Source: a virus (lineage: Duplodnaviria; Heunggongvirae; Uroviricota; Caudoviricetes). Taken from it: 14,206 bases of DNA. The position numbers and the translations under genes are program-made. The stretch's first letter is position 1. Every line of letters starts with the position of its first letter. Location: positions 1 to 14,206 of IMG/VR virus record IMGVR_UViG_2609459844_000009. One strand, 5' to 3'. Positions 1-14,206 of this stretch are shown here, piece by piece. Below the pieces are notes generated by a model that made no database searches, was not told where the DNA came from, and saw nothing but the letters and a program-made list of their open reading frames with translations.

Positions 1-1155
1 ATGCTCACCGTTAAGCAGATTGAAGCAGCAAAGCCGAAAGAAAAACCATACCGCCTTCTCGATGGTAATGGCCTGTACCTTTATGTTCCTGTATCCGGGA
101 AAAAGGTATGGCAGCTTCGCTACAAGATTGACGGTAAGGAGAAAATCCTGACCGTCGGAAAATATCCGCTAATGACTTTGCAGGAGGCAAGAGATAAAGC
201 ATGGACCGCGAGGAAAGACATCTCGGTTGGCATCGATCCGGTAAAAGCGAAAAAGGCTTCGTCTAACAACAATTCCTTTAGTGCGATTTACAAGGAATGG
301 TACGAGCACAAGAAGCAAGTCTGGTCAGTAGGCTATGCAAACGAACTTGCCAAAATGTTTGACGACGACATTTTACCCATCATCGGCGGCCTTGAAATTC
401 AGGATATTGAGCCGATGCAACTGCTGGAAGTAATCCGCAGATTTGAAGATCGCGGTGCAATGGAGCGAGCCAACAAAGCCCGCAGAAGATGCGGAGAGGT
501 TTTCCGTTACGCTATTGTCACCGGAAGGGCTAAATATAACCCGGCACCTGACCTTGCAGACGCCATGAAAGGATACCGCAAGAAGAACTTCCCGTTTCTT
601 CCTGCAGACCAGATCCCGGCATTCAACAAAGCACTGGCAACATTTTCAGGAAGTATCGTATCGCTTATTGCGACTAAAGTTTTACGCTACACCGCCCTAA
701 GAACGAAAGAACTTCGTTCCATGCTATGGAAGAACGTCGATTTTGAAAACAGGATTATCACCATCGACGCCAGTGTGATGAAGGGTCGCAAGATTCATGT
801 AGTACCGATGTCAGACCAGGTAGTTGAACTTCTCACTACGCTAAGCTCAATCACCAAACCAGTATCAGAGTTTGTTTTTGCCGGGCGCAACGATAAGAAG
901 AAGCCAATCTGCGAGAACGCGGTGCTACTTGTGATCAAACAAATCGGCTATGAGGGTCTGGAAAGCGGTCACGGATTCAGGCATGAATTCAGCACGATTA
1001 TGAACGAGCACGAATGGCCTGCTGATGCTATTGAAGTGCAACTGGCACATGCCAACGGCGGATCTGTGCGCGGGATTTACAACCATGCTCAGTATCTCGA
1101 TAAACGCAGAGAAATGATGCAGTGGTGGGCGGACTGGATTGATGAAAAGGCGTGA
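1..1155 (+). CDS. intS: Tyrosine recombinase, P4-family prophage integrase (IntS-like, argW-targeting)
   Basis: 384-aa ORF starting at window position 1. N-terminal arm-binding region (KQIEAAKPKEKPYRLLDGNGLYLYV) typical of P4-type integrases; C-terminal catalytic signature HGFRHEF ... LAH ... RGIYNHAQY. Recalled as near-identical to E. coli KplE1/CPS-53 IntS. A TorI-like excisionase lies at the opposite end of the element, as in KplE1. Confidence 0.9.
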   Translation: MLTVKQIEAAKPKEKPYRLLDGNGLYLYVPVSGKKVWQLRYKIDGKEKILTVGKYPLMTLQEARDKAWTARKDISVGIDPVKAKKASSNNNSFSAIYKEWYEHKKQVWSVGYANELAKMFDDDILPIIGGLEIQDIEPMQLLEVIRRFEDRGAMERANKARRRCGEVFRYAIVTGRAKYNPAPDLADAMKGYRKKNFPFLPADQIPAFNKALATFSGSIVSLIATKVLRYTALRTKELRSMLWKNVDFENRIITIDASVMKGRKIHVVPMSDQVVELLTTLSSITKPVSEFVFAGRNDKKKPICENAVLLVIKQIGYEGLESGHGFRHEFSTIMNEHEWPADAIEVQLAHANGGSVRGIYNHAQYLDKRREMMQWWADWIDEKA

Positions 1156-1244
1156 TGCTTTCCATCTTTCCATTCGGATTCCTCCTACCAGATTTACCTG
1201 GAGAGTGATATAGTTAATCTTTTAAAAAGTTACATGGGCTTTGC

Positions 1245-3080
1245 ATGTCTTCTAAATTTAGGAATGATATTAATGGGCTAAGGGCTCTAGCGGTCGCAGC
1301 TGTTATTATATATCACTTTAATAGCTCTTATATGTCAAGCGGATTTGCAGGAGTGGATGTTTTTTTTGTTATCTCTGGATACCTGATGACATCCATAATA
1401 GTTAATAAATTCAATGATGGTAATTTCAAGCTTTTTGATTTCTACCTATCCAGAGCAAAAAGAATCATACCATCATTAATAATAGTCTGCTTTGCTCTGT
1501 TGATTTTTGGTTTTTTATTAATAGAACCTGGTACTTATCAGCTAATAGGTAAGCATTCGGCAAGCTCTCTTACATTCATATCAAACTTTACCTATCTATT
1601 TGAATCTGGATATTTCGACCAATCATCCAAAGAAAAGTTTTTGCTGCACACTTGGTCACTATCTGTTGAGTGGCAGTTCTACTTGATTTATCCATTTATA
1701 ATAATATCAATTTCTAAGCTGTTTGGCATAACAAGGCTGCGAGCGGCGCTAGCGTCTCTATCGGTGATTGGATTTATAATTTCTTTAATTATATCAAAAG
1801 AAGATATATCTTTATCTTACTATATGTTTTTTAGCAGAGCATGGGAGATGATAGTAGGTGGAGTTATTTTCTTGCTTCCATCAATAATGACGCAGACAAA
1901 GAGACTGACTTTAGAAATAATAGGGTGCATTGGTATAATATTATCATTTTTTGTTTTTACTGAACAAACGTTATGGCCGGGGACTCCAACTCTAATGCCT
2001 GTAATGTTCACTGCATTGGTTATATATGCTAATAATGAAAAATCAATTCTATCTGCAAGGCCAATTCAATTAATCGGTAAGATATCATATTCTATATACT
2101 TGGTGCATTGGGTAATATTAGTATCATTAAAAAAACTGTATATAGACTTTGGGTTTGCTGCATACCTGATATCAACATTAATGCTATCTTTTGCATTATA
2201 TCACTTTGTTGAAAAAAGGCGTAGCTTTGGGAAAATATGGGTTTATTTGTATGTTTTATGTTTTCTCATTTCGCTGGCCGTCTCCTTGAATGGAGTCAGA
2301 TCGCGAACAAGTGGGTCAGATGATTACAGAATGAGCCTTCAGGAGTTCAGAGACAAGTACGAAGGAAGTGATGGAGTAAAGGATAGCCTCAAACCTATCT
2401 TCTTCAACTCTAACGAAGATGACTTTGAATATATATTAATTGGAAGTAGCCATGCAAAGCACTATTACTCATATATAAAATCAAAAGGTTTGAAAGTGGT
2501 GTCGCTTGCGCTTGATGGGTGTAACTCAACAAAAAACAGGTATACCAACTACCGTCCGGAATCATGCGCCCCTCGCTATGATCAAGTGGTAAAATTCATC
2601 AATGACCATCCTGGCAAAAAGGTAGTTTGGGCTACTTTGTGGACTTGGGTTGGGATCCCTAGAGATAGCTCCAAAAATAATAATGAGAGTACTCTAGATG
2701 TGATAAATGAAGAAGTAACTGCATTTATAGGTGACATTAATAAATCAAATAGTGACATTTATCTTATAGGTGACGTTCCGGGCACTAAGAAACTAACATT
2801 TGAATGCATGGCTAAAAATTCGCTGCCTTTGAATAGATATTTCAATTTGGGCGGATGCAGTGACAAGCAAAAGTATGAGGACGATGGTGTTGATGCAACA
2901 CTATCATCCATAGCTAGAAAATATGATAACGTTCACTTTATAGGGGCTGCAAACTCCTTGTGCTCATCAGGTGAATGCATGTTGATATCTGAAGGTAAAC
3001 CAATTTATACAGATTATGGTCACCTTTCAAAATATGGTGCAAATATAGTCGGAAAGTATATATTCAGTAAAGTTAATTAA
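1245..3080 (+). CDS. O-antigen O-acyltransferase, acyltransferase-3 (AT3) membrane domain fused to C-terminal SGNH domain (OafA/Oac-like)
   Basis: 611-aa ORF. N-terminal AT3 hallmarks (GLRALAVAAVIIYHF with conserved Arg and His; VDVFFVISGY) and many predicted TM helices; C-terminal SGNH-like motifs (ILIGSSHAKHY; DYGHLS near the end). Very AT-rich versus neighbours, no strong SD. Occupies the slot where KplE1 carries gtrABC-like genes and Sf6 carries oac. Confidence 0.85.
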   Translation: MSSKFRNDINGLRALAVAAVIIYHFNSSYMSSGFAGVDVFFVISGYLMTSIIVNKFNDGNFKLFDFYLSRAKRIIPSLIIVCFALLIFGFLLIEPGTYQLIGKHSASSLTFISNFTYLFESGYFDQSSKEKFLLHTWSLSVEWQFYLIYPFIIISISKLFGITRLRAALASLSVIGFIISLIISKEDISLSYYMFFSRAWEMIVGGVIFLLPSIMTQTKRLTLEIIGCIGIILSFFVFTEQTLWPGTPTLMPVMFTALVIYANNEKSILSARPIQLIGKISYSIYLVHWVILVSLKKLYIDFGFAAYLISTLMLSFALYHFVEKRRSFGKIWVYLYVLCFLISLAVSLNGVRSRTSGSDDYRMSLQEFRDKYEGSDGVKDSLKPIFFNSNEDDFEYILIGSSHAKHYYSYIKSKGLKVVSLALDGCNSTKNRYTNYRPESCAPRYDQVVKFINDHPGKKVVWATLWTWVGIPRDSSKNNNESTLDVINEEVTAFIGDINKSNSDIYLIGDVPGTKKLTFECMAKNSLPLNRYFNLGGCSDKQKYEDDGVDATLSSIARKYDNVHFIGAANSLCSSGECMLISEGKPIYTDYGHLSKYGANIVGKYIFSKVN

Positions 3081-3087
3081 ACCAAGA

Positions 3088-3114
3088 CCCCTCAATCCTG
3101 AGGGGCTTTTTTTT
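3088..3114. terminator. Bidirectional rho-independent terminator between convergent acyltransferase and tailspike genes
   Basis: Hairpin CCCCTCA-atcc-TGAGGGG followed by T8 on the + strand; the tailspike stop codon overlaps the T tract on the other strand. Confidence 0.8.
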
Positions 3115-5347
3115 ACGCGGTTAATATCCAGCGCTTATCATAATAATGCATTAATCCTTGTGATGTTATTTTCATATGCACGATTGCTTGAGAAAAAGCG
3201 GCGGCAGCAAAACTTACCCTAAGAAATGTTTGTGAGCCGTTATTGTATTTAGATGTGGTAATGCCGGTTAGGTTTTTACTTCCAGCAATCATATTTGACC
3301 AAACATTACTTGAAGCTAAAGTGGCTTGATCTTTTGCTGATACGCTTACCAATATAACTCCACCGGTCTCACCAGTTCCGCCCAATCCATTCTGATTAAT
3401 TGGCATAATCTTTAACTCTGCTGCGATAAAACCCCCCCCCGTATATGAAGCTTCTTCACCAATCGTTGAAATAAGAATATCAATATTTCTTCCATATGGT
3501 ACCAAAACCGTCGCATCTTCAGTTAATACCTGAGTGTATGTGGCGTTTTTAGCTTGGTGTTTAGCGGAAAGAACCACACCATCAGAACCAGTTCGAAAGC
3601 CGATTCCAGTATGTTCCCCGTAGTATTTACCGTAATAATTTATTCCTCTGACGTCAAATTCTGAAATAGCACTTCCGGTTGTGTTTTTTACGAAAATGAA
3701 CTTATCACCGAAGGTGAAACCTCGGCACTGATATTTATTCGTTGGATCGGCAATGTTTTTAAGAAAGGAAATTCCCTTATAGGCTTTAACGTACCCACTT
3801 TCGAAACGAAAGTTCACAGGACCCTTTTGTTCATTTGCTGGTAATTCAACAAAATGAGTAACCGTGGCTCCGCTAGGGTCCTGAATCCAGCAGGAAATGT
3901 TCTCAACGGTTGCAACTGATTGGCCGTCCTCTTCATTGTAATCTGCAAAATCAAGAGCGTGCGTACCATTTATCCCTTCGATACCCATACCTTTGATAGA
4001 AAGAGAGCGGAATCCATAGAACTTATGAGGTAAAGAACAACCATCTGCAGCAATATTATTTACGGCAACGTACATTAATGGCCCCGGAGCCTTTACAGGT
4101 TCATAGGTTTCTCTATCAATCACAGCCCCCCAAAGATAACCAACACCACATTGCGAAGACCAAATTGCAGAGACATCAGTACTTGTTCCCCATATTGCAA
4201 ATCCGTATGTGCAATCATACATAAAAATATTTTGTATGACGCTGACAAATGGACACGATGGGAGCGCAAATTTATAATGGTAGAAGTCTATATTAGTTAG
4301 CTTCCAGTTCTTTCCGCCACCATACGTGGTGCTAGGACCACTTAGCAAAAGTGGACACCCTGTATATTCAGAGTCAGCGTTTCTGAAACCAATATTTTCA
4401 ATATGTAAATTATGACCCCATGAGGACATGTAAAAACCGCCATTTCCTGACGTATAAATCAAACTCTGCCTCGGGTTATCACCCTTAATATTTAAGGTGA
4501 TGCCTTCCCATCTAAACTGGCTAATGTCAATTTGAGTGTTACCAATATATATAGGCTGGTCTATAAAAATAGGAAGTTTAGTTAGATAAGCTTTATTAAG
4601 TGCTAATCCATCATTTGTTACACCTGTTAAATCGACGCCACCCATGCTTGGCGCTTTTGGGTAAGGCGTTCCCTGAATAGTACTTCCATCAATATAAGGA
4701 GCATCCATCCACGCTCCAAACATACGTGGTGTTACGTACCCCTTACCTTGAAGATCACGTTTCCAGCGTTTACCACCCACAGTGACAATGACCATGCCGT
4801 TATCATCTGCAGAAGTAGAATCTGTGAAATCGGCCACAAACAGACCACCACCAGTATCGCCTGATACTGTCGGCTTCATGCCTGTGGTGTGGAAGTCGAC
4901 GAAAATCTTTTGCTGATCTCGCTCAGGCTCAATTGTCCTTAACATTGCTATATCAGGGCATGTCCCGATGTATTTAAGACCGTCTTCCCCTGATAGAGAT
5001 ACTTTAAGCTGATCAGGATCATATTTAAGAACATTCGGAAAATAGAACTGCTGTGCACCATATGCATCATAAACAGCCATAGAATGGCCTTGCACAGTTA
5101 CGAATTTAGCAATCTGCCCATTATATACCGGATATCCAGCGGCGTTAATGATGATTGGTTGCGAAACAGGAATGTGAGAGCCATCTTCGTTCTCCACATA
5201 AACCTGAATCTGGTTTTCAGGATTTACCGGGTCAGTGTCAATTTTACCGATATAAATTTTGCCATTGGCTACGGCTTTAAAAGAACGAGCCATAGTGAAG
5301 AGTTGCGATGGCATACTCACTACAACATTGGCTGTAATGTCTGTCAT
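3113..5347 (-). CDS. Tailspike protein: P22 gp9-like N-terminal head-binding domain with divergent receptor-binding/enzymatic body
   Basis: 744-aa ORF. First ~110 residues ([11 protein letters not shown] ... [33 protein letters not shown] ... [12 protein letters not shown] ... NVLKYDPDQ) closely match the recalled P22 gp9 head-binding domain; the rest is unrelated to P22 gp9 by eye and Gly/Thr/Asn-rich as expected for a beta-helix. SD GGAG ~9 nt upstream of ATG. Confidence 0.85.
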
Positions 5348-5483
5348 TTAATTTGCTCCAGATGCAAGGAATCGCCGCAGCATGGCTACGGTTGGTATTT
5401 GTTTGGTTTTTGAACTACGAAAATTTCGTAGTGCTATCCATCAAGGCCATCGCCGCTTAGTTGCTGCGGTGAATTTTGGGCAT

Positions 5484-5506
5484 AAAAAAACCCAGCCGAA
5501 GCTGGG
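5484..5506 (-). terminator. Rho-independent terminator downstream of ant (minus strand)
   Basis: On the minus strand: CCCAGC-ttcg-GCTGGG followed by T7. Lies between the ant stop and the tailspike start, like the terminator after ant in the P22 immI operon. Confidence 0.75.
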
Positions 5507-5525
5507 TCGTTGCGTTGGTTATCTG

Positions 5526-6428
5526 TCAGTAGTTATGTACTGAAGGAGGTAATTCTTTATTCTTAAGTCTCATCCATGCGGAAAGATTCGTTGGTCCGTC
5601 TGGCTCATTGATATCAACATCTCGTGAGTGATTGATTAAAACGTCTCTCGCTATATCGATAATACGGGAGAACTCATAACCGCAGTCATGACATCTGCCG
5701 GAATAGTTCGATTGAATTTGTTTCAGCGCCGGATACAGTTCGCGGAATAATGCCTGTGAACGGTTAGCATAATCCCATAGCCATACAAGGCTGTTTGCTT
5801 CTTTTTCAGAAAGCTCGTTGGTTTTCTTCTCTTGTTTGCCGATGAACTCGCCTTCAAGCACTACCCTGTGGATGTACTCTACGGCTTGCGGTATCTGAGA
5901 TGCATCAAGCTCTTCAATACTTTCCACATTGAAACGCTGATGAATCATTGCATAAGCTTCTGGGTACATTAGATGCTTTTTGCTGACCAGCATATTTACA
6001 GCATCACGAAGCGGAGTCCTGTCATCAACAGATGTTTTCTTACGTGCATTTTCTGCCTTTCCCTTTGTCCAGTAGTCATGCAGCACAGTAAAGCATTCTT
6101 CCTGGTACTGAATCAGTTTATCGCGGATGTCAGCACGAACTTTCTCAGGGTTGATGCTGAACAGCCATCCATTTAACTTCTTCAAAGGAAGGCAGAGTAG
6201 CTTACGAAGCTTACCATCAGCGGCAACCATATTCATATGAATACAGTTGAACTTATCTAGTTGTTTCATAAGTTTTTGTTGCTGAGTACCCCAGCTCATT
6301 CCGAGGTTTTCAACGATTGGCTTCATCGCAACATATGCAACTCCGGCAGCCATGGCGGTGATAATCTGCTGACCATTGAAAGGCACGTAAGAGGTGTTCA
6401 CTGCTTCTAAAATTGCTATACTATTCAT
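5526..6428 (-). CDS. ant: Antirepressor Ant (P22 immI-type)
   Basis: Start chosen at the internal ATG ([22 protein letters not shown]...) preceded by GGAGA; 300 aa, the length of P22 Ant. Position (arc ... ant, then tailspike, same strand) matches P22 immI. The ORF-track start at 6458 is a TTG without an SD. Confidence 0.8.
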
Positions 6429-6490
6429 GTTGGTTTTTCTCCAAGGATTTACCGACAACCGAAGCCCTGACTGTTACCGCAGTTGGGGCT

Positions 6491-6760
6491 TCAACGTTTT
6501 TCCACTTCATTTTGAATTTGCTTAAGTAGCATATTTGTCTCGTCAAGCCTCTTGTTAATACGGTCAAGGCTTTCTACTAAATCGTTATGTGCATGTGATA
6601 CTTCGTAATTTGAGACTGATTTCTTTTCCTCTATCGTCTTTGTCAATCGTTCCCCTGATTGATACATATTGATTAACGATGTAAAAATCACGAGCAAGCA
6701 AACTACAATGATTGCGCCAGACAAAAATTGTAAAGAACGATCAAGCAATGACACCTTCAT
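6491..6760 (-). CDS. Small membrane-anchored coiled-coil protein, function unknown (inserted between arc and ant)
   Basis: 89 aa with one N-terminal hydrophobic helix (LQFLSGAIIVVCLLVIFTSLI) then a charged helical region. Start ATG overlaps the arc stop (ATGA) and is preceded by GAGGGG, indicating translational coupling to arc. P22 has no gene at this position as far as I recall. Confidence 0.65.
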   Translation of the reverse strand: MKVSLLDRSLQFLSGAIIVVCLLVIFTSLINMYQSGERLTKTIEEKKSVSNYEVSHAHNDLVESLDRINKRLDETNMLLKQIQNEVEKR

Positions 6761-6909
6761 ACCGTAATCCCCTCTCTCTTCAGACTGTCCAGCAATCGCT
6801 TAATCACTTCCGAGTTAAACGACCGGCATTCTTCTTTGGCCTTTCCTGTAATCGCATCTTTTAGCGACTGAGGCATTCTCACCAAAATTCTGCTAACTTC
6901 TTTTTCCAT
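6757..6909 (-). CDS. arc: Arc-like ribbon-helix-helix repressor
   Basis: 50 aa from the internal ATG (MEKEVSRILVRMPQSLKDAITGKAKEECRSFNSEVIKRLLDSLKREGITV); aligns with recalled P22 Arc (RxPxxLxDxxxxxAxEExRSxNSE ... KxEG). Divergent from mnt. Confidence 0.8.
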   Translation of the reverse strand: MEKEVSRILVRMPQSLKDAITGKAKEECRSFNSEVIKRLLDSLKREGITV

Positions 6910-7018
6910 ATCGCCACCACGTGAGTTATTGTGAATCACAAACATATCACCGTGACTATATCAAGTCAAAATTTTTTTGAATACACTGTGATATCAATGT
7001 GATTATCACGGTGTAAGT
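6910..7018. promoter_or_regulatory. immI divergent promoter/operator region between arc and mnt
   Basis: Contains CACGTG (6917-6922), TGTGAATCACA (6930-6940), ATCACCGTGAC (6946-6956) and its inverted partner ATCACGGTGTA (7005-7015), and the perfect palindrome TGATATCA (6988-6995). The CACCGTG/CACGGTG core resembles the centre of the recalled P22 Mnt operator (CCACGGTGG). Confidence 0.6.
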
Positions 7019-7273
7019 ATGACGAAGGTTAGAGACATAGCCCCATATAGCGTAAGAATGCCAGATAGCCTCAAGCGCGACCTGACCATAAGAGCATCGA
7101 AAAACGGACGCTCATTAAATTCAGAAATAGTTATGATCTTGCAAGCTGCTATTGATGAAGAAAAATCACCAAGATCAATAGAAGGTTTTGCTCAACAAGA
7201 ATCTGAAAAATTTAGGGAGGCTCTTCTTAAGACTCTCAGCAGCATGTACGGAGAAGATAAAAAACCCACCTGA
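7019..7273 (+). CDS. mnt: Mnt-like ribbon-helix-helix repressor
   Basis: 84 aa; N-terminal RMPDSLKRDLTIRASKNGRSLNSEIV matches the recalled P22 Mnt RHH motif (RMPxxxxxxLxxRAxxNGRSxNSE). Divergent from arc. Confidence 0.8.
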   Translation: MTKVRDIAPYSVRMPDSLKRDLTIRASKNGRSLNSEIVMILQAAIDEEKSPRSIEGFAQQESEKFREALLKTLSSMYGEDKKPT

Positions 7274-7285
7274 CGGTGGGTTTTT
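7259..7285. terminator. Bidirectional rho-independent terminator shared by mnt and the convergent 330-aa gene
   Basis: A6 - CCCACC-tgac-GGTGGG - T5; the mnt stop codon lies in the loop and the stop of the minus-strand gene (7287) abuts the T tract. Confidence 0.8.
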
Positions 7286-7286
7286 C

Positions 7287-8279
7287 TTATTCTTTATCTT
7301 TTAAGTCTATGGTTCTTTGCCCAATAACCTTTTCATCTATGTATTTCTCATACTCTTCTCGAGTATCAGAAACCATTGCAATACCAGTAACCTTACCTAT
7401 TTGGGTTCTAAGAGCCTTAACTCCAACCTCTGATAAAAACTGGTGTATTTTATCGTTTTTGCTGCCTTTCTCTTCTTTTGAAGTTTTTGCTAAATTAAAT
7501 ACCTTTCCTTCACTTCTGGCTAATGGGTAATAAATGTGATCTATCGTAAGATATTTAAACGCCCATGGTCGCCCTCTAACTGGTTTGTCTATACCATACA
7601 AACGATACCAATGCTCATAAAGTTCAGGGGTGAACTCTCTTTCATACTCACGAGCCTCTTCAGCAACATATCGCTTATATGCTTGAATTACCTCTTCTTT
7701 TGTTCTGTCATACCCTGCCAAAGCATAAACAAGCCCCTGAATGCCCGCCTTGGCTGATGCATCAATAATGATTCTGGCTTGCTTAGCAATCCCTTCCTGA
7801 CTGGAAAGCAACTTACCTTCAGCTTTAGCATTAGAGATTGCTCGACATAAATCAATTAATATTGTTACATCGTAGCCATGTATTACAGGATTAGCTGGAG
7901 TGTTCGTGCCCGCCTGTTTGTATTGAAAAATAAGAGGATTTTCAAGTTTTGCCCTTAATTCATGCCCAATATACTGAGAAATAGTTTTCCCCTGAATAAA
8001 CTTTGGCAACCTGCTGCCACCTTCGCCAAGACCAATCGCTTCTCCCATGCCTCTCTGGCTAATAACGGCAGTTTTGTTATCATCATTTAACACATAGCAC
8101 TCAACATCAATCCCGAATTCATGCTGGAACGATCCCTTATGCGTGGCAATTAATGGTTTATCCTTCCATCTTGCAGCCGCTGCTTTCTTTGCTATTTCAG
8201 AACGCTGCTCTTTAGTCAGCGACTTTGCGCGAGCGATCCCGCCCTTAGCTTTCCCTTCACTACTTTTCTTTTCTGTCAT
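7287..8279 (-). CDS. Hypothetical protein with Lys/Ala-rich basic N-terminal tail; unknown function, possible DNA-binding regulator or exclusion/defence factor
   Basis: 330-aa ORF (MTEKKSSEGKAKGGIARAKSLTKEQRSEIAKKAAAARWKDK...). AGGTG ~9 nt upstream of ATG; TTGCTT-18 bp-TATAAT sigma70-like promoter on the minus strand (+ strand 8312-8341). AT-rich relative to early genes. I could not assign a family; there is a vague resemblance to phage Bro-N/P63C-type regions that I cannot substantiate. Confidence 0.75.
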   Translation of the reverse strand: MTEKKSSEGKAKGGIARAKSLTKEQRSEIAKKAAAARWKDKPLIATHKGSFQHEFGIDVECYVLNDDNKTAVISQRGMGEAIGLGEGGSRLPKFIQGKTISQYIGHELRAKLENPLIFQYKQAGTNTPANPVIHGYDVTILIDLCRAISNAKAEGKLLSSQEGIAKQARIIIDASAKAGIQGLVYALAGYDRTKEEVIQAYKRYVAEEAREYEREFTPELYEHWYRLYGIDKPVRGRPWAFKYLTIDHIYYPLARSEGKVFNLAKTSKEEKGSKNDKIHQFLSEVGVKALRTQIGKVTGIAMVSDTREEYEKYIDEKVIGQRTIDLKDKE

Positions 8280-8434
8280 AATGCAAGCACCTTGTTGTGA
8301 TATATGCTTGCATTATATACACTGTACACACATACAAGCAAGCATAAAAACAAAACAAAATGCTTGCATTACAACCGCGCTACTCCAACTACACATTATC
8401 ATCTGGTATCCTGCACAAAACTAAGGAGGTTGGT
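8280..8434. promoter_or_regulatory. Divergent promoter region with four copies of the 10-bp palindrome ATGC(AA/TT)GCAT (putative operator array)
   Basis: Sites at 8281-8290 (ATGCAAGCAc), 8304-8313 (ATGCTTGCAT), 8336-8345 (AAGCAAGCAT) and 8360-8369 (ATGCTTGCAT); centre-to-centre spacings ~23, 32 and 24 bp. They overlap the RBS/start, -10 and -35 of the 330-aa gene's predicted promoter. Confidence 0.6.
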
Positions 8435-8764
8435 GTGCTTGAATGGTTTCTGTTGGCTGCATTAGTCGTTTCTGGTTTGGTGTATGAGTATCGAATGCAC
8501 TCTCTAACAAAAAAAATAGGAATTCTAGAAAACGAATATTGTGCTCTCAAATCCTCACTGGAACGTGAGCAAGGGGACTTAAAAATCTCTCTGTCTAGCA
8601 TTGAGCGTTCTATAGAGAGCTTAGAGGATAAGGTTGATCGTATAAAGAATGAGGATATTCATGATATTAAGGACGACATATCCTTCTTAAAATCTTGGTT
8701 GAAAAATGTTGGGAAAATTGCCACATCAACACGAGATAAGCTCAATCCATCCATGGATGACTAA
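8435..8764 (+). CDS. Small membrane-anchored coiled-coil protein, function unknown
   Basis: GTG start 5 nt after a perfect AGGAGG SD (8424-8429); ~109 aa with N-terminal hydrophobic helix (LEWFLLAALVVSGLVY) then a charged heptad-like helical region. AT-rich. The upstream ATG at 8360 lies inside operator site 4 with no SD, so I prefer the GTG. Confidence 0.55.
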   Translation: MLEWFLLAALVVSGLVYEYRMHSLTKKIGILENEYCALKSSLEREQGDLKISLSSIERSIESLEDKVDRIKNEDIHDIKDDISFLKSWLKNVGKIATSTRDKLNPSMDD

Positions 8765-9016
8765 TTACTCCTGTGCCATTCCGCTTAGCGATGCCACAAT
8801 TCCAGCTCTTGCTAAACGCTGGAACTCTTCGTTTCCTAGTGCCTCGCGTATTGCTTTTACGGCGGCCTTATTTGCCATAAATCTGCGTTCCGCCGCCGCT
8901 AATGCACCATCACTTGCCCCAACCTTAACTGCCTTTGTTGCCTCTTGAACAGCCTTTTCAATAGCGTAACGACCGCTTCTAGTTGCGGATAATTTCGCTA
9001 TCGCTCCTTTTGCCAT
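8765..9016 (-). CDS. Ala-rich small ORF, possibly the C-terminal remnant of a larger (late/ejection-type?) gene
   Basis: 83 aa from the first ATG, but the frame stays open upstream to ~9142 with no start codon and no convincing SD, suggesting a 5'-truncated remnant. Its stop codon abuts the stop of the convergent gene at 8764. Confidence 0.3.
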   Translation of the reverse strand: MAKGAIAKLSATRSGRYAIEKAVQEATKAVKVGASDGALAAAERRFMANKAAVKAIREALGNEEFQRLARAGIVASLSGMAQE

Positions 9017-9061
9017 TGCATCAATTGCCCCACCTGCAGCGCCAACGGGCCATACGCGCCA

Positions 9062-9556
9062 GTTATTTCTATTGGGGCAGTATTCTTTGACCCGAATACC
9101 GGAGAAACAGGAGAAGAGTTCTCGGTAAATATCTCGCTTGAGTCATCAATGCGATATCGGGCGCGTCCTGACGCTTCAACGATTTTATGGTGGCTGGAAC
9201 AGAGTGAAGAAGCCAGAAAATCGCTAACCAGCAACACTCAGGAGCTTTCAACGGCTCTTTCATGGTTATCTGAATTCATCATAAAGAACGCTAACCACAA
9301 ATTCGTTCAGGTTTGGGGGAATGGAGCATCATTTGACTGCGTTATTCTCCGCAACAGTTATTCGCTGACAGGGCAGCCAGTTCCGTGGCAGTGGTGGAAT
9401 GACCGCGACGTAAGAACAATCGTCGAACTTGGGAAGGTAATAGGATTCGACCCTAAGCGAGATATGCCATTCAAAGGAACTCGCCACAACGCGCTTGATG
9501 ATGCCATTCACCAAGCCAAATACGTTTCAGCGATCTGGAAAAAGTTAGCTAAATAA
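9062..9556 (+). pseudogene. DnaQ/DEDD-like 3'-5' exonuclease (Rv2179c-like phage exoribonuclease family), 5'-truncated
   Basis: Frame is open from 8903; first ATG at 9149. Translation from ~9062 (VISIGAVFFDPNTGETGEEFSVNI ... WWLEQSEEARKSL ... VQVWGNGASFDCVILRNS ... GTRHNALDDAIHQAKYV) matches this family as I recall it, including the motif III H-x4-D. The expected N-terminal DxE motif (I.D.ET.G) is absent in all three forward frames upstream. Confidence 0.5.
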
Positions 9557-9572
9557 TCAACAGGAGAAAACC

Positions 9573-9866
9573 ATGCCAGCGCCTCTGTATGGTGCGGATG
9601 ACGCGCGCCGCTGTTCCGGCAATTCCGTATCGGAGGTGCTGGATAAATTCAGAAGAAACTACGATCGGATAATGTCGCTACCACAGGAAACGAAAGAGGA
9701 AAAGGAATTTCGCCACTGTATATGGCTTGCAGAGAAAGAAGAACGCGAGCGAATTTACCAGACATCAATCCGACCATTCCGCAAAGCCACATATACCCAC
9801 TTCCCTGAAATTGACCCGCGCCTGCGTAATTACCGCTCACGCTATGGCGCTATCAGTAATGACTGA
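9573..9866 (+). CDS. Hypothetical phage early-region protein
   Basis: 97-aa ORF with GGAGA SD 7 nt upstream of ATG; tightly packed same-strand gene array. Confidence 0.6.
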   Translation: MPAPLYGADDARRCSGNSVSEVLDKFRRNYDRIMSLPQETKEEKEFRHCIWLAEKEERERIYQTSIRPFRKATYTHFPEIDPRLRNYRSRYGAISND

Positions 9867-9876
9867 GGAATTAACA

Positions 9877-10167
9877 ATGAAAACAATGAAGCTAAACATC
9901 GACCTCGGCAAATACGTTATTACCGGAACCAAACACGACCTGATTCTTAATGAAAGAGGAATTATCAAAGAAGGTGAGAATGCAGGGAAAGAAACACTAA
10001 GCCGTATCGGTTATTACAGCAAGTTTGAGCATCTGGTCAAAGAGTTATGCAACCGTGAAATCCTGTTATCTCAGGCGCAGACGCTACAGGATATTCAGCA
10101 GCATATCGAAACTTTAGGTATGTCACTTAGCATGGCTATTGACCAGTTCGTTGAGAGTAAATCATGA
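9877..10167 (+). CDS. Hypothetical phage early-region protein
   Basis: ATG ([13 protein letters not shown]...) 6 nt after GAGGAA, immediately after the upstream stop; the longer ORF-track start at 9727 overlaps the previous gene and is less likely. Confidence 0.6.
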
Positions 10168-10331
10168 GAGGACTTGCATACAATCCCGGCATTCTTCCGG
10201 CAGAAATGATTATTCGCCAACGCGTAAAGCCAATGCCATCGAGAGAGGAATTGCTTAAAAGAAAGAGTTTCGGTTCTGTTAATGACAACAAATATCTGAA
10301 TGCTATGTGGCGCAAAGGAGGCAACCAGTGA
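10164..10331 (+). CDS. Small hypothetical protein (55 aa)
   Basis: ATG overlaps the upstream stop (ATGA) and its own stop overlaps the next gene's GTG start (GTGA), suggesting translational coupling. Below the ORF-track size cutoff. Confidence 0.4.
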
Positions 10332-10582
10332 GTAATTCAGCACGACTACAGCTTGGTTTTTCACCGCTATCAAAAACTATCATGCTGGCAAAAATGCGCG
10401 ATGTTGAAGGTGGACGTATGCGCGTTGGCAATGATCCAGGTCGTGATGTTACCAATGAGGCTGCTCAATTGGTGTGGCGACTGGTCATGGCTGAAGGTGG
10501 TGAGATCGCGCGGGAGCTGGATGATGGTTCTCGCATGGTGTTGAAGGCAGAAAAGCAGGAGGCAACCAGTGAGCCAGATTGA
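10328..10582 (+). CDS. Hypothetical phage early-region protein
   Basis: GTG start 6 nt after AGGAGG; the same 17-nt SD-plus-start block (AGGAGGCAACCAGTGAG) recurs at the start of the next gene. Confidence 0.55.
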
Positions 10583-11012
10583 TTATCAGGCACTGCGTGC
10601 TAAGGCAGAAAAAGCAACGTGTGGCGAGTGGTCGCTCGAATATGGAGAGGGCCGATTTGATGGTGATGATGCGCTAATTCATCGCGAGGCTGCTGGATAT
10701 ATTCCTATTTGCAGAATTGAAGGAGCGCATCCAGAAAGCGGTTTCGATGAAGATTTCCAAATGGAACAGCAGGCCAATGCTGAATTCATCGCCGCAGCCA
10801 ATCCGGCTACCGTGCTGACACTGCTGGACGAGCTGGAAGCAGCAAAAAAGCGCATTGCAGAACTGGAAGCACGGGAAATATCGCTCCCAGAACGTAGCAG
10901 CATGCTTCATCGAACAGATTTTCACGAGGATTACCAAACGGTAATGGCATACAAAGTTTCTGAGGTCATCGCTGCAATCCGCGCCGCTGGCATTCGCATC
11001 AAAGGAGAGTGA
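10569..11012 (+). CDS. Ead/Ea22-like early protein
   Basis: 147 aa; GTG start after AGGAGG. Contains the AANPATVL.LLDELEAA...RIAELE segment that I recall as characteristic of Ead/Ea22-like proteins of lambdoid and P22-like prophages. Confidence 0.55.
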   Translation: MSQIDYQALRAKAEKATCGEWSLEYGEGRFDGDDALIHREAAGYIPICRIEGAHPESGFDEDFQMEQQANAEFIAAANPATVLTLLDELEAAKKRIAELEAREISLPERSSMLHRTDFHEDYQTVMAYKVSEVIAAIRAAGIRIKGE

Positions 11013-11013
11013 G

Positions 11014-11205
11014 ATGAACGGACAAATCTCAATTGTTCGACCGGGAGCATGTGACGATCGCGAGATACGAATGATTATTCGTCTGGCGATGGGGAAAACA
11101 ATAACAGCTCTCATTACTCCAGAAAATCTCGCATTAGCTTTAACCGGAAAGTCAGACCTGCCAGTGGAGCTAAAACTGCGAAATGTTGAGATTAAGGTGA
11201 AATAG
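11014..11205 (+). CDS. Small hypothetical protein (63 aa)
   Basis: ATG 1 nt after the upstream stop; fills the gap in the same-strand operon. Confidence 0.45.
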   Translation: MNGQISIVRPGACDDREIRMIIRLAMGKTITALITPENLALALTGKSDLPVELKLRNVEIKVK

Positions 11206-11207
11206 CC

Positions 11208-11822
11208 ATGACCACTATTACCAAAGAACGTATTGAATTGTTCATTAAAGATCCGCTTGAAAACGGGCTTACTCGTGGCGAACAAATGGAACTGGCACGA
11301 ATTGCACTGGCATCACTGGAACGCGAACAGATTCGCCACGAGCATGCCAAATGGTCTGACTCCACATTTGGCTGCGTTGGCCCCATTGGTCCGCTGAAAC
11401 ATCTCTCAAAAGAGGCTCTGGAAGCCGCAGCCGAACCTGACGATCTCAGCGAGTGGGCTGATATGCAGTTCCTGTTGTGGGATGCACAGCGCCGTGCTGG
11501 TATCAGTGATGCTGAAATTACCGCTGCTATGGAAGATAAATTGAAGATCAACATGAAGCGCCAGTGGCCTGAACCAAAAGATGGTGAGCCTCGCTTGCAC
11601 ATTAAAGAACCCGGCAACTCTCCGGTAACTCCGGATGGTTGGATAAGCTGTAGTGAGCGAATGCCAAGCGAAGAAGATGTTTTGGTTTATTGCTCAGACA
11701 CAAAAGAGCAGATGGTAGGGTTTCACAAAGGTAAAGGGTTATTTCAATTCTTTTACATGAATGGTGTTGAGGGGGTATGTGAGCCGTCACACTGGATGCC
11801 GCTACCAGAGCCTCCACTTTGA
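11208..11822 (+). CDS. DUF550/DUF551-type prophage protein (MazG-like dATP/dGTP pyrophosphohydrolase-type N-terminal region, DUF551 C-terminus)
   Basis: 204 aa; the C-terminus (...CEPSHWMPLPEPPL) matches the recalled DUF551 ending (HWMPLPEPP); the N-terminal region resembles the DUF550 module often fused to it. Confidence 0.5.
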   Translation: MTTITKERIELFIKDPLENGLTRGEQMELARIALASLEREQIRHEHAKWSDSTFGCVGPIGPLKHLSKEALEAAAEPDDLSEWADMQFLLWDAQRRAGISDAEITAAMEDKLKINMKRQWPEPKDGEPRLHIKEPGNSPVTPDGWISCSERMPSEEDVLVYCSDTKEQMVGFHKGKGLFQFFYMNGVEGVCEPSHWMPLPEPPL

Positions 11823-11919
11823 AAGCGAAGCTTATACATATCTTTTACATCAGCAATCTATTGTTAATCTCCAATCAATGTTACGTTGTCATCTCACTCA
11901 TGCTTTGGAGGTAGTGATA

Positions 11920-12098
11920 TGTCTTGTCCAAAATGCGGTTCTGGAAATATTGCAAAAGAAAAAACAATGCGTGGATGGTCTGGTGATTATGTGTGCTGCG
12001 ATTGCGGATACAACGACTCTAAAGACGCATTTGGAGAGCGTGGTAAAAACGAGTTTGTTAAAATTAATAAAGAACGCGAAGGCAACGAAAAAAGCTAA
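11920..12098 (+). CDS. Small zinc-ribbon protein
   Basis: 59 aa from the ATG 7 nt after GGAGG (MSCPKCGSGNIAKEK ... CCDCGYND): two Cys pairs in C-x2-C ... C-x-C arrangement. The longer track ORF (11886) lacks an SD. Confidence 0.55.
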
Positions 12099-12163
12099 TT
12101 TATTTATTCATATATTAAAACAATGTAACCAATATTCGAATTGAAGAACTGAAAGAACACCAA

Positions 12164-12184
12164 GCCGCCTGATGGCGGTTTTTT
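12164..12184 (+). terminator. Rho-independent terminator ending the early-gene array
   Basis: GCCGCC-tgat-GGCGG followed by T6. Confidence 0.7.
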
Positions 12185-12194
12185 ATTGCCTGAT

Positions 12195-12210
12195 TTGCAG
12201 GTTCGATTCC
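12195..12210 (+). other. tRNA-Arg (argW) T-arm-derived 16-nt fragment just upstream of torI
   Basis: TTGCAGGTTCGATTCC matches the T-stem/T-loop part of E. coli argW as I recall it (...AATTGCAGGTTCGATTCCTGCAGGGGACACCA); similarity ends at 12211. Confidence 0.5.
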
Positions 12211-12229
12211 CTATTCGGAGATAGCACTC

Positions 12230-12430
12230 ATGCAACACGAACTACAACCTGATTCACTGGTTGATTTGAAATTCATCATGGCTGATACTGGCTTCGGTAA
12301 GACCTTCATCTATGACCGGATTAAGTCCGGCGACCTGCCAAAAGCCAAAGTTATCCACGGGCGAGCAAGATGGTTATATCGTGACCATTGTGAATTCAAA
12401 AATAAGCTCTTAAGCCGCGCCAATGGGTAA
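12230..12430 (+). CDS. torI: Excisionase / recombination directionality factor, TorI-like (AlpA/Xis family winged-helix)
   Basis: 66 aa (MQHELQPDSLVDLKFIMADTGFGKTFIYDRIKSGDLPKAKVIHGRARWLYRDHCEFKNKLLSRANG), recalled as matching KplE1 TorI. It sits at the opposite end of the prophage from int and next to the att remnant, as in KplE1. Confidence 0.8.
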   Translation: MQHELQPDSLVDLKFIMADTGFGKTFIYDRIKSGDLPKAKVIHGRARWLYRDHCEFKNKLLSRANG

Positions 12431-12503
12431 AATAGCGGGTAAAATATTTCTCACATCTAAAAAACACCATTCCAATCAATCCCCTGCTGCTTCAAGTAGA
12501 TGT

Positions 12504-12518
12504 CTGCAGGGGACACCA
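12504..12518 (+). other. argW 3'-terminal fragment (…CTGCAGGGGACACCA): candidate attR core / right prophage boundary
   Basis: Exact 15-nt match to the recalled 3' end of tRNA-Arg argW including the CCA end, with no upstream tRNA body; non-coding host-like DNA follows. Confidence 0.6.
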
Positions 12519-12958
12519 GATACCCTTCAAACGAAATCTACCTTCACCCCGTAAAAGATAGGTTTGGCAGCACACTTGCCTTATATCTACTCATTTTTAC
12601 TGCAACAGGTTGAAATCTCAGCACTGTCAGAAAGCGCTGATGACTAAACAGCCCTGGGCCGGGCGATGTAACCATCACACAGAATCCTGATAGCGAAATA
12701 TGGCGTGACTCGATACTTCACTCCGCAATGCATTCCTTGATGAATTCGCAGGACCGTGATACACGGGACAGGTCGCTGAATGACGACAATGTCCTGGAAA
12801 TCAGCGAACCGCGCATCTGAAGTACATTTGAGCGACTGTACCAGAACATGAATGAGGCGTTTGGATTAGGTGATTATTAGCAGGGCTAAGCACTTTAGTA
12901 TTATTATTTTCCGGTTGAGGGATAGGGAGATATCGACAACAACCGGAAAAGTTTACGT

Positions 12959-14206
12959 CTATATTGCTGAAGGTACAGGCGTTTCCATAACTATTTGCTC
13001 GCGTTTTTTACTCAAGAAGAAAATGCCAAATAGCAACATCAGGCAGACAATACCCGAAATTGCGAAGAAAACTGTCTGGTAGCCTGCGTGGTCAAAGAGT
13101 ATCCCAGTCGGCGTTGAAAGCAGCACAATCCCAAGCGAACTGGCAATTTGAAAACCAATCAGAAAGATCGTCGACGACAGGCGCTTATCAAAATTTGCCA
13201 CGCTGTATTTGAAGACGGATATGACACAAAGTGGAACCTCAATAGCATGTAACAGCTTCACTAATGAAATAATCCAGGGGTTAACGAACAGCGCGCAGGA
13301 AAGGATACGCAACGCCATAATCACAACACCGATAAGTAATGCATTTTTTGGCCCTACCCGATTCACAAAGAAAGGAATAATCGCCATGCATAGCGCTTCG
13401 AGTACCACCTGGAATGAGTTGAGATAACCATACAGGCGCGTTCCTACATCGTGTGATTCGAATAAACCTGCATAAAAGACAGGAAAAAGTTGTTGATCAA
13501 AAATGTTATAGAAAGACCACGTCCCCACAATAAATATGACGAAAACCCAGAAGTTTCGATCCTTGAAAACTGCGATAAAATCCTCTTTTTTTACCCCTCC
13601 CGCATCCGCCGCTACGCACTGGTGATCCTTATCTTTAAAACACATGTTGATCATCATAAATACAGCGCCAAATAGCGAGACCAACCAGAAGTTGATATGG
13701 GGACTGATACTAAAAAATATGCCGGCAAAGAACGCGCCAATAGCATAGCCAAAAGATCCCCAGGCGCGCGCTGTTCCATATTCGAAATGAAAATTTCGCG
13801 CCATTTTTTCGGTGAAGCTGTCAAGCAAACCGCATCCCGCCAGATACCCCAGGCCAAAAAAGAGCGCCCCCAGAATTAGACCTACAGAAAAATTGCTTTG
13901 CAGTAACGGTTCATAAACGTAAATCATAAACGGTCCGGTCAAGACCAGGATGAAACTCATACACCAGATGAGCGGTTTCTTCAGACCGAGTTTATCCTGA
14001 ACGATGCCGTAGAACATCATAAATAGAATGCTGGTAAACTGGTTGACCGAATAAAGTGTACCTAATTCCGTCCCTGTCAACCCTAGATGTCCTTTCAGCC
14101 AAATAGCGTATAACGACCACCACAGCGACCAGGAAATAAAAAAGAGAAATGAGTAACTGGATGCAAAACGATAGTACGCATTTCTGAATGGAATATTCAG
14201 TGCCAT
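12959..14206 (-). CDS. cscB: Sucrose:H+ symporter, LacY-family MFS permease (CscB)
   Basis: 415-aa ORF with 12-TM MFS architecture; N-terminus (MALNIPFRNAYYRFASSYSFLFFISWSLWWSLYAIWLKGHLGL) recalled as E. coli CscB. The csc locus is known to lie next to argW in sucrose-positive E. coli. The window ends exactly at its start codon. Confidence 0.85.
   Translation of the reverse strand: MALNIPFRNAYYRFASSYSFLFFISWSLWWSLYAIWLKGHLGLTGTELGTLYSVNQFTSILFMMFYGIVQDKLGLKKPLIWCMSFILVLTGPFMIYVYEPLLQSNFSVGLILGALFFGLGYLAGCGLLDSFTEKMARNFHFEYGTARAWGSFGYAIGAFFAGIFFSISPHINFWLVSLFGAVFMMINMCFKDKDHQCVAADAGGVKKEDFIAVFKDRNFWVFVIFIVGTWSFYNIFDQQLFPVFYAGLFESHDVGTRLYGYLNSFQVVLEALCMAIIPFFVNRVGPKNALLIGVVIMALRILSCALFVNPWIISLVKLLHAIEVPLCVISVFKYSVANFDKRLSSTIFLIGFQIASSLGIVLLSTPTGILFDHAGYQTVFFAISGIVCLMLLFGIFFLSKKREQIVMETPVPSAI

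Follow-up and report, generated by a model that had tools for sequence, protein, structure and literature searches.

Is a run of nine G in the tailspike gene of a temperate phage a switch, a sign of decay or an error of sequencing? The question is raised by a 14,206-nt stretch of viral DNA (Caudoviricetes; positions 1 to 14,206 of IMG/VR record IMGVR_UViG_2609459844_000009), which is referred to here as the window and contains an intact P22-type tailspike gene with such a run. An original prediction made from the letters alone had named three possibilities, namely a switch for phase variation, a hotspot of decay in a defective prophage, and a site prone to sequencing errors. The tract DNA was compared in 33 related loci (numbered L001, L002 and so on), and the tract is probably no programmed switch but a place in a P22-like tailspike gene where ordinary slipped-strand mutation is frequent, and which shows up because selection has been relaxed in decaying prophages. 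The second option thus held, phase variation did not, and a false call of the ninth G in the window is unlikely.

Alleles of the tract and their genomic context

The run and the gene that contains it are as follows:

3113–5347, minus strand: intact P22-type tailspike gene, 744 amino acids (aa), identical to NCBI WP_248699835.1 / KDW00965.1
3432–3440, minus strand: G9 homopolymer (C9 on the plus strand), comprising the third base of Thr636, Gly637, Gly638 and the first two bases of Gly639
3428–3431, minus strand: T4 run (A4 on the plus strand) directly 3' of G9 on the coding strand, recognized by allele comparison in related loci

The nine C on the plus strand correspond to G9 on the coding strand of the minus-strand tailspike open reading frame (ORF), and no other G/C run longer than six occurs in the 14.2-kb window. 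On the coding strand the region reads ACG GGG GGG GGT TTT ATC (Thr636-Gly-Gly-Gly639-Phe-Ile); G9 starts at position 1908 of the coding sequence, and 105 residues follow Gly639. The position of the run, its peptide context and its distance of 105 codons to the stop had all been given correctly, as direct reading of the window confirmed. As a bare sequence feature G9 is uncommon, not extraordinary, since dinucleotide-preserving shuffles gave an expectation of 0.17 G8 per window and 9 of 200 shuffles contained at least two overlapping G8 matches, equivalent to a G9.

Megablast searches with the receptor-binding part of the gene (3113–5008) yielded no match in 5,426 complete E. coli genomes, and the tract alleles were therefore taken from draft and Logan assemblies by means of exact-protein look-ups. 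Clusters of proteins at 90% identity contained intact members of 744/745 aa reading ...SYTGGVFIAAELK and members of 644 aa ending ...TGGVLSQQS, ...TGGGLSQQS or ...TGGFLSQQS. The variable unit behind these endings is a composite tract, G(n)T(m), whose summed length fixes the frame (13 is in frame, 12 is −1); the window allele is G9T4. Among relatives at 97% identity or more, G8T5 (Gly-Gly-Val, in frame) was the commonest state and was accompanied by three −1 alleles (G7T5, G8T4 and G9T3), all of which encode the 644-aa product predicted for a one-base loss. The original prediction of a slippage-prone tract is thus supported by natural alleles in public E. coli assemblies, and the comparison of tract length across related prophages that it had proposed revealed five G(n)T(m) alleles and one interrupted form:

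G9T4, in frame: window haplotype A (L001–L003) and haplotype C (L021, L022)
G8T5, in frame: L012–L015, L031–L033
G7T5, −1: L004–L008, L019, L020
G8T4, −1: L011
G9T3, −1: L009, L010
G6-T-G-T5 (GGG GGT GTT), in frame, run interrupted: L023–L030

Exact look-ups of the predicted products added four combinations of haplotype and allele (B_G8T5, B_G8T4, C_G9T4 and C_G7T5); they returned no +1 (650-aa) allele and no frameshift allele on haplotype A, and A_G8T5, B_G9T4 and B_G9T3 were not in the collection. JGI metagenome contigs and GTDB species genomes gave no hit in scans for the tract with variable-spacing patterns, and IMG/VR gave just the one contig already found. A G12T2 tract in CP141656.1 (L018) was considered as a natural +1 allele and set aside as unreliable. 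Although labeled 'complete', this assembly has many single-base indels relative to the near-identical strain represented by L019, several of its genes are uncalled, and its homopolymer lengths (G12T2, G10) are not trustworthy.

Haplotypes A, B and C are 30–38 single-nucleotide polymorphisms (SNPs) apart in the tailspike gene. Haplotype C combines G8T5, G8T4, G9T3, G9T4 and G7T5 with an otherwise identical tailspike, the first four having been compared as DNA over the 2,235-bp gene and G7T5 (P0111) as an exact protein match only; haplotype B occurs with G8T5, G7T5 and G8T4. Six haplotype C loci of 21.7 kb show four differences outside the tract. The tract thus accounts for at least four events in 13 bp, and the 21.7 kb for four others, a per-base excess of about three orders of magnitude at the tract, which is a repeat within an ORF with locally elevated length-changing mutation, one of the properties by which contingency loci are recognized.

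The frameshifts are not distributed evenly over genomic contexts. Every −1 allele lies in a prophage remnant without virion genes, belonging to one of three lineages: the remnant of lineage B occupies the same chromosomal neighbourhood as the window, near argW; that of lineage C lies between ybhC and bioA, where lambda attaches, and has a lambda-type integrase; and in that of lineage D' the 5' half of the tailspike gene has already been removed by IS1. The loci that keep gp4, gp10, gp7, gp20 and gp16 (L002, L023, L025–L027, L031 and L032) are all in frame, and no −1 (OFF) allele was encountered in a functional genetic context among the loci compared.

The window is itself such a remnant. It is contained in contig JNPF01000047.1 of E. 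coli assembly GCA_000703525.1 (L001), and the same tailspike occurs in another isolate (L002, ERR3328380) whose prophage keeps the coat gene, gp4, gp10, gp7, gp20 and a full gp16. The two agree over 12.7 kb except for a single SNP and a chromosomal G-run whose length differs by one base. Since this agreement ends at a deletion joint (9044/9045) that fuses a gp16 fragment to the early-left region, the window prophage is a 12.7-kb deletion remnant devoid of virion genes, in keeping with the proposal of a decay hotspot in a defective prophage.

Across relatives the run is not maintained. In a tailspike with 99% identity (P0066), which eight loci encode, one of them a complete phage contig of 40.5 kb with circular phage gene order (L023), it is broken by a synonymous GGT (GGG GGT GTT); the synonymous interruption for which the original prediction had pointed to close relatives is therefore present, though the length varies across strains. 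An E. coli homologue with 70% identity writes Thr-Gly-Gly-Val-Phe as ACT GGT GGT GTT TTT. In 24 homologues position 639 is Val, Cys, Asn or Thr, beside an invariant Phe640, and Gly639 is confined to the G9T4 allele. Judged from these sequences, the run is not conserved as a device, nor is the tract kept up across relatives. The series GGG GGT GTT, GGG GGG GTT and GGG GGG GGT suggests that the run grew at its 3' edge by T-to-G changes. The window's G9T4 would accordingly be a derived in-frame Val639Gly allele of the G8T5 tract and the most derived in-frame state, a descent that, like the share of the T run in the length changes, had been missed before.

Other homopolymers served as controls. 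Coding A/T runs of 6–8 and a C6 run were invariant in 18–28 loci, and a coding T8 in the acyltransferase gene (1360–1367, plus strand, codons 39–41) had eight bases in 24 of 24 loci. This T8 had been suspected as a second variable run on account of acyltransferase calls of 564 versus 611 aa and was rejected as such; as it is invariant, the two lengths on identical DNA reflect the choice of start codon. An intergenic T8 (3107–3114, plus strand), which follows the acyltransferase terminator stem (3088–3105) and overlaps the tailspike stop codon, was found with lengths of 7, 8, 9 and 10 in 8, 4, 6 and 1 of 19 related loci, respectively, and differs even inside the near-clonal lineage C. A chromosomal intergenic G-run (position 19003 of L001), located about 3.6 kb beyond intS, outside the window on its left side, where a 352-aa gene and a fadL-like gene flank it, is G8, G9 or G10 depending on the strain. 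It is the sole difference in 11 kb between L019 (GCA_900449785.1) and L020 (ERR3372551), which represents either real microvariation or sequencing discordance at G-runs. Because the coding runs are stable while the intergenic T8 and the chromosomal G-run vary, the tailspike tract behaves as an unconstrained long homopolymer.

The tailspike protein and the effect of a one-base slip

Two domains of the tailspike bear on the consequences of a slip:

5009–5347, minus strand: N-terminal head-binding domain, aa 1–113 (Pfam, PDB and DNA similarity)
3116–3526, minus strand: predicted C-terminal beta-sandwich domain, aa 608–744 (AlphaFold2 model and fold matches)

The Pfam family Head_binding (PF09008) matches residues 1–113 (E = 1.6e-66), and residues 1–116 match Sf6 gp14 (PDB 7sg7, E = 1e-64), with a match to the P22 N-terminus also in the PDB. 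The first ~340 nt of the gene have 91–95% nucleotide identity to E. coli P22-like phages, and DNA similarity to the tailspikes of HK620, Sf6 and CUS-3 is confined to the head-binding domain. Among 50,697 phage records none matches the receptor-binding part at the DNA level, and a PDB sequence search found no relative beyond residue ~216 and hence none for the tract region. Outside the group at ~97–100% identity, the nearest proteins are E. coli tailspikes with 70% and 68% identity; the next relatives, at ~50%, have other N-terminal adaptors, and one of them is annotated as a Klebsiella phage tail spike.

An AlphaFold2 model of the monomer, calculated with 25 homologues, shows a beta-helix body and, from about residue 608 to 744, a beta-sandwich at the C-terminus. 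The pLDDT is mostly above 80 for residues 130–530 and most of 610–734, with a low-confidence stretch at 566–601, and the best Foldseek matches of the model are phage tailspike depolymerases (E values of 1e-15 to 1e-11). The protein is thus predicted to have a parallel beta-helix, depolymerase-like body and a C-terminal domain, as P22-like tailspikes do. The gene lies downstream of the immI region (mnt-arc-ant) and upstream of an O-antigen modification gene and int, an order also found in L023. With the tailspikes of P22, Sf6 and HK620 (Lederbergvirus) it shares the head-binding domain, the gene position and the beta-helix depolymerase-like fold, whereas its receptor-binding part is unlike theirs at the DNA level.

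A slip in either direction had been expected to replace the C-terminal ~105 residues. Instead, it truncates the protein: the loss of one base leads to 644 aa and the gain of one to 650 aa (predicted products 644/645 or 649/650 aa), all ending after 5–11 missense residues, and no long alternative ORF exists in the +1 or −1 frame after the tract. The C-terminal 105 residues are, according to the model, part of the beta-sandwich domain. The tract codons would be located just before a strand at 639–650, and a frameshift would remove six of the eight strands listed for residues 608–744. In the P22 tailspike the C-terminal part is needed for trimer maturation, and by analogy the 644-aa product is probably non-functional.

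Explanations of the length variation

The preferred explanation combines mutation and selection. The run would lengthen through T-to-G changes at the edge of a stretch coding for Gly-Gly-Val; once it has reached 8–9 bases, replication slippage in the G or the T run would yield one-base losses, each of which would truncate the tailspike at 644 aa, just inside the C-terminal beta-sandwich domain. In prophages that make virions such frameshifts would be removed by selection. In deleted remnants they would survive, because the tailspike is no longer needed there, and would accumulate as neutral decay at the most mutable site. The single-base deletions in either run are consistent with Streisinger slippage, and the T-to-G changes at the boundary (G8T5 to G9T4, G8T4 to G9T3) may have arisen by slip-and-realign 'dislocation' mutagenesis, which has been described at homopolymer ends (PMC3105016), or by loss of a T followed by gain of a G. 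Reversal (G8T4 to G9T4) and a single substitution would account for the allele network equally well. With known hotspots of this type the tract shares one-base changes in a run of at least eight, substitution of a flanking base to the base of the run, and stability of shorter runs; it differs in that the mechanism is deduced here from comparing sequences, and in that the two-step path of −T and +G leads to G9T4 as well.

Several observations weigh against this explanation. In-frame alleles persist in remnants too (L001, L013–L015, L021, L022), and G9T4 could have come from G8T4 by a +G reversion that restored the frame, as expected of reversible switching. The sampling is clonal and its units are not independent, so that few independent lineages stand behind the contrast between complete prophages and remnants: three remnant lineages with OFF alleles against three lineages that retain virion genes and have none. 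The alleles are known from assemblies and were compared between strains, and C_G7T5, B_G8T4 and B_G8T5 are each known from a single Logan contig.

The last point also favors a technical origin, in which the window would truly be G8T5, its ninth G a GGT-to-GGG miscall by Illumina sequencing, and much of the tract diversity an artefact of sequencing or assembly. T-to-G after GG is the dominant systematic Illumina error and is replicable between runs (PMC3295828), which calls for caution with the ninth G; G9T4 and G8T5, and likewise G9T3 and G8T4, differ by exactly this change, a further argument against the preferred explanation. Moreover, a single G in another G-run is all that separates L019 from L020 over 11 kb, and G12T2 stems from the assembly with many one-base indels. 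These points leave the technical origin a small chance, since the NCBI assembly and an independent Logan assembly (SRR1186618) agree on G9T4 and are identical over 18.5 kb (L001 and L003), and since another isolate, whose prophage is far more complete (L002), shows it too. There are five alleles, and each recurs in a set of independent samples (for example 7 contigs for B_G7T5, 6 for C_G9T3 and 8 for C_G8T5), whereas one systematic error should result in one wrong call because the flanks are identical in all loci. One-base deletions are also atypical of systematic Illumina error, and the coding T8 of the acyltransferase gene was called consistently throughout. An adaptive contingency locus of a temperate P22-like coliphage might also be envisaged, in which single bases are reversibly lost and gained by slippage (G8T5 to G8T4 to G9T4 to G9T3). 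This would toggle the tailspike between full length and 644 aa as bet-hedging for phage or lysogen, in the manner proposed for polyG tracts of Campylobacter phage receptor-binding genes and for simple-sequence repeats of T-even phages, G9T4 being a frame-restored 'ON-prime' state. Such a locus would diversify virion infectivity or release free depolymerase within a lysogen population, and would extend the idea of phage contingency loci, described recently (PMC12633550), to the receptor-binding protein of a temperate coliphage. It would fit the multiple independent length changes on identical backgrounds, the single one-base steps that link the alleles (with G9T4 readable as a +G that restores the frame after −T), and the occurrence of G9T4 on two backgrounds, A and C.

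This adaptive scenario is nevertheless improbable, even more so than a technical origin. Complete phages whose tailspike is 99% identical have the run interrupted, the 70% homologue lacks it, and no long alternative ORF is available, findings that speak against the phase-variation option of the original prediction. OFF alleles occur only where virion genes are deleted and never in loci that have them; as the tailspike is the sole receptor-binding protein seen in these loci, OFF should give non-infectious particles. An unconstrained intergenic run of similar length varies as much, and the changes are deletions only, apart from the one unreliable assembly. Recoding at the level of expression is a third conceivable source of two products. 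In E. coli, transcription can slip on long homopolymers, and slippage of RNA polymerase or the ribosome on G8–9/T4–5 would yield full-length and truncated tailspike from one allele, so that 'frameshifted' alleles would be leaky, with a shorter product made in addition from in-frame alleles. Besides this background, it is favored by a 97-aa in-frame remainder ORF that gene callers find after the −1 stop. It is very improbable, however, given that the tract is not conserved, that the out-of-frame tails are short and arbitrary (5–11 residues), and that no stimulatory structure was noticed, although none was specifically looked for.

The slipped-strand hotspot in neutral decay thus remains the best description. 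Long-run one-base changes beside stable shorter runs, in a gene of a defective element, agree with this class, to which the tract was assigned because it is hypermutable while neither conserved nor OFF in functional contexts. It is best filed as a further instance of an already known kind of locus.

Comparison with other hypermutable loci leads to the same assignment. In Campylobacter phages, polyG tracts are reportedly conserved in lytic phages and are said to create functional phenotypic diversity. The tailspike tract, in contrast, is lineage-specific, interrupted in complete phages and OFF only in dead remnants. With the tracts of Campylobacter Fletchervirus it shares a frame-switching G homopolymer in the gene of a receptor-binding protein (Sorensen et al., 2021, Cell Rep 35:109214, cited in PMC10877375) and a length that differs between closely related genomes. 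For phages T2 and T4 one study reports putative contingency loci across all functional classes of genes (Gomez, Barrick and Waters, bioRxiv 2025, PMC12633550); as in the tailspike gene, mononucleotide repeats of at least six bases in coliphage genes give rise to frameshift alleles via polymerase slippage. Those loci were established by read-level frequencies and selectable reversion in a replicating lytic phage, whereas the tailspike tract is seen in a between-strain comparison of host-replicated prophages with no selectable benefit evident.

Phase variation based on homopolymers is not known as a trait of E. coli. The phase-variable genes of Neisseria, Campylobacter and Bordetella (for example PMC1891110 and PMC5084427) resemble the tailspike gene in an intragenic G/C tract of 8–9 bases with ON and OFF states among near-identical isolates; unlike them, the tailspike gene has a tract that is not conserved and is without an evident role in the lysogen.

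If the hotspot explanation holds, the locus would be a clean natural example of a homopolymer that grows by substitution at its edge and is then the first site to break after release from selection. The 644-aa 'tailspike' entries in public E. coli annotations would be frameshift pseudogenes of one gene, and the tract calls for caution in SNP/indel typing and in calls of prophage completeness.

The prophage remnant and neighbouring genes

The other features of the window are:

1–1155, plus strand: IntS-type prophage integrase (intS)
1245–3080, plus strand: AT3-SGNH O-antigen-type acyltransferase, 611 aa
3088–3114, plus strand: stem-loop and T8 (3107–3114) between the convergent O-acetyltransferase and tailspike genes
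5489–5508, minus strand: terminator-like hairpin ending in a T7 tail, in the gap that separates ant from the start of the tailspike gene
5526–6458, minus strand: antirepressor Ant, with P22_AR_N and P22_AR_C domains
6757–6945, minus strand: arc
7019–7273, plus strand: mnt-like gene, forming the immI region with ant and arc
8765–9044, minus strand: 3' fragment of the gp16 ejection-protein gene
about 9045–12500: early-left genes
12959–14206, minus strand: chromosomal cscB-like sucrose/oligosaccharide permease, beyond the right prophage end

The prophage end with the IntS-type integrase is presumed to lie beside argW, following E. coli annotations and the K-12 map; argW itself was not located. 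In a remnant without the late-gene region, the hairpin at 5489–5508 would probably allow little transcription of the tailspike gene.

When positions 1–9044 of the window were compared with L004–L005, L009–L015, L018–L020 and L024, at least four independently deleted P22-like remnants were found to keep one block, consisting of the O-antigen acyltransferase, the tailspike, immI (ant/arc/mnt) and often sieA. These remnants have differing deletion joints or an IS1 truncation, and they occupy two chromosomal sites, one next to intS/yfdC and the other the lambda attachment site with its lambda-type integrase. The block may have been retained because selection favors the acyltransferase and the exclusion genes, the tailspike being a passenger.

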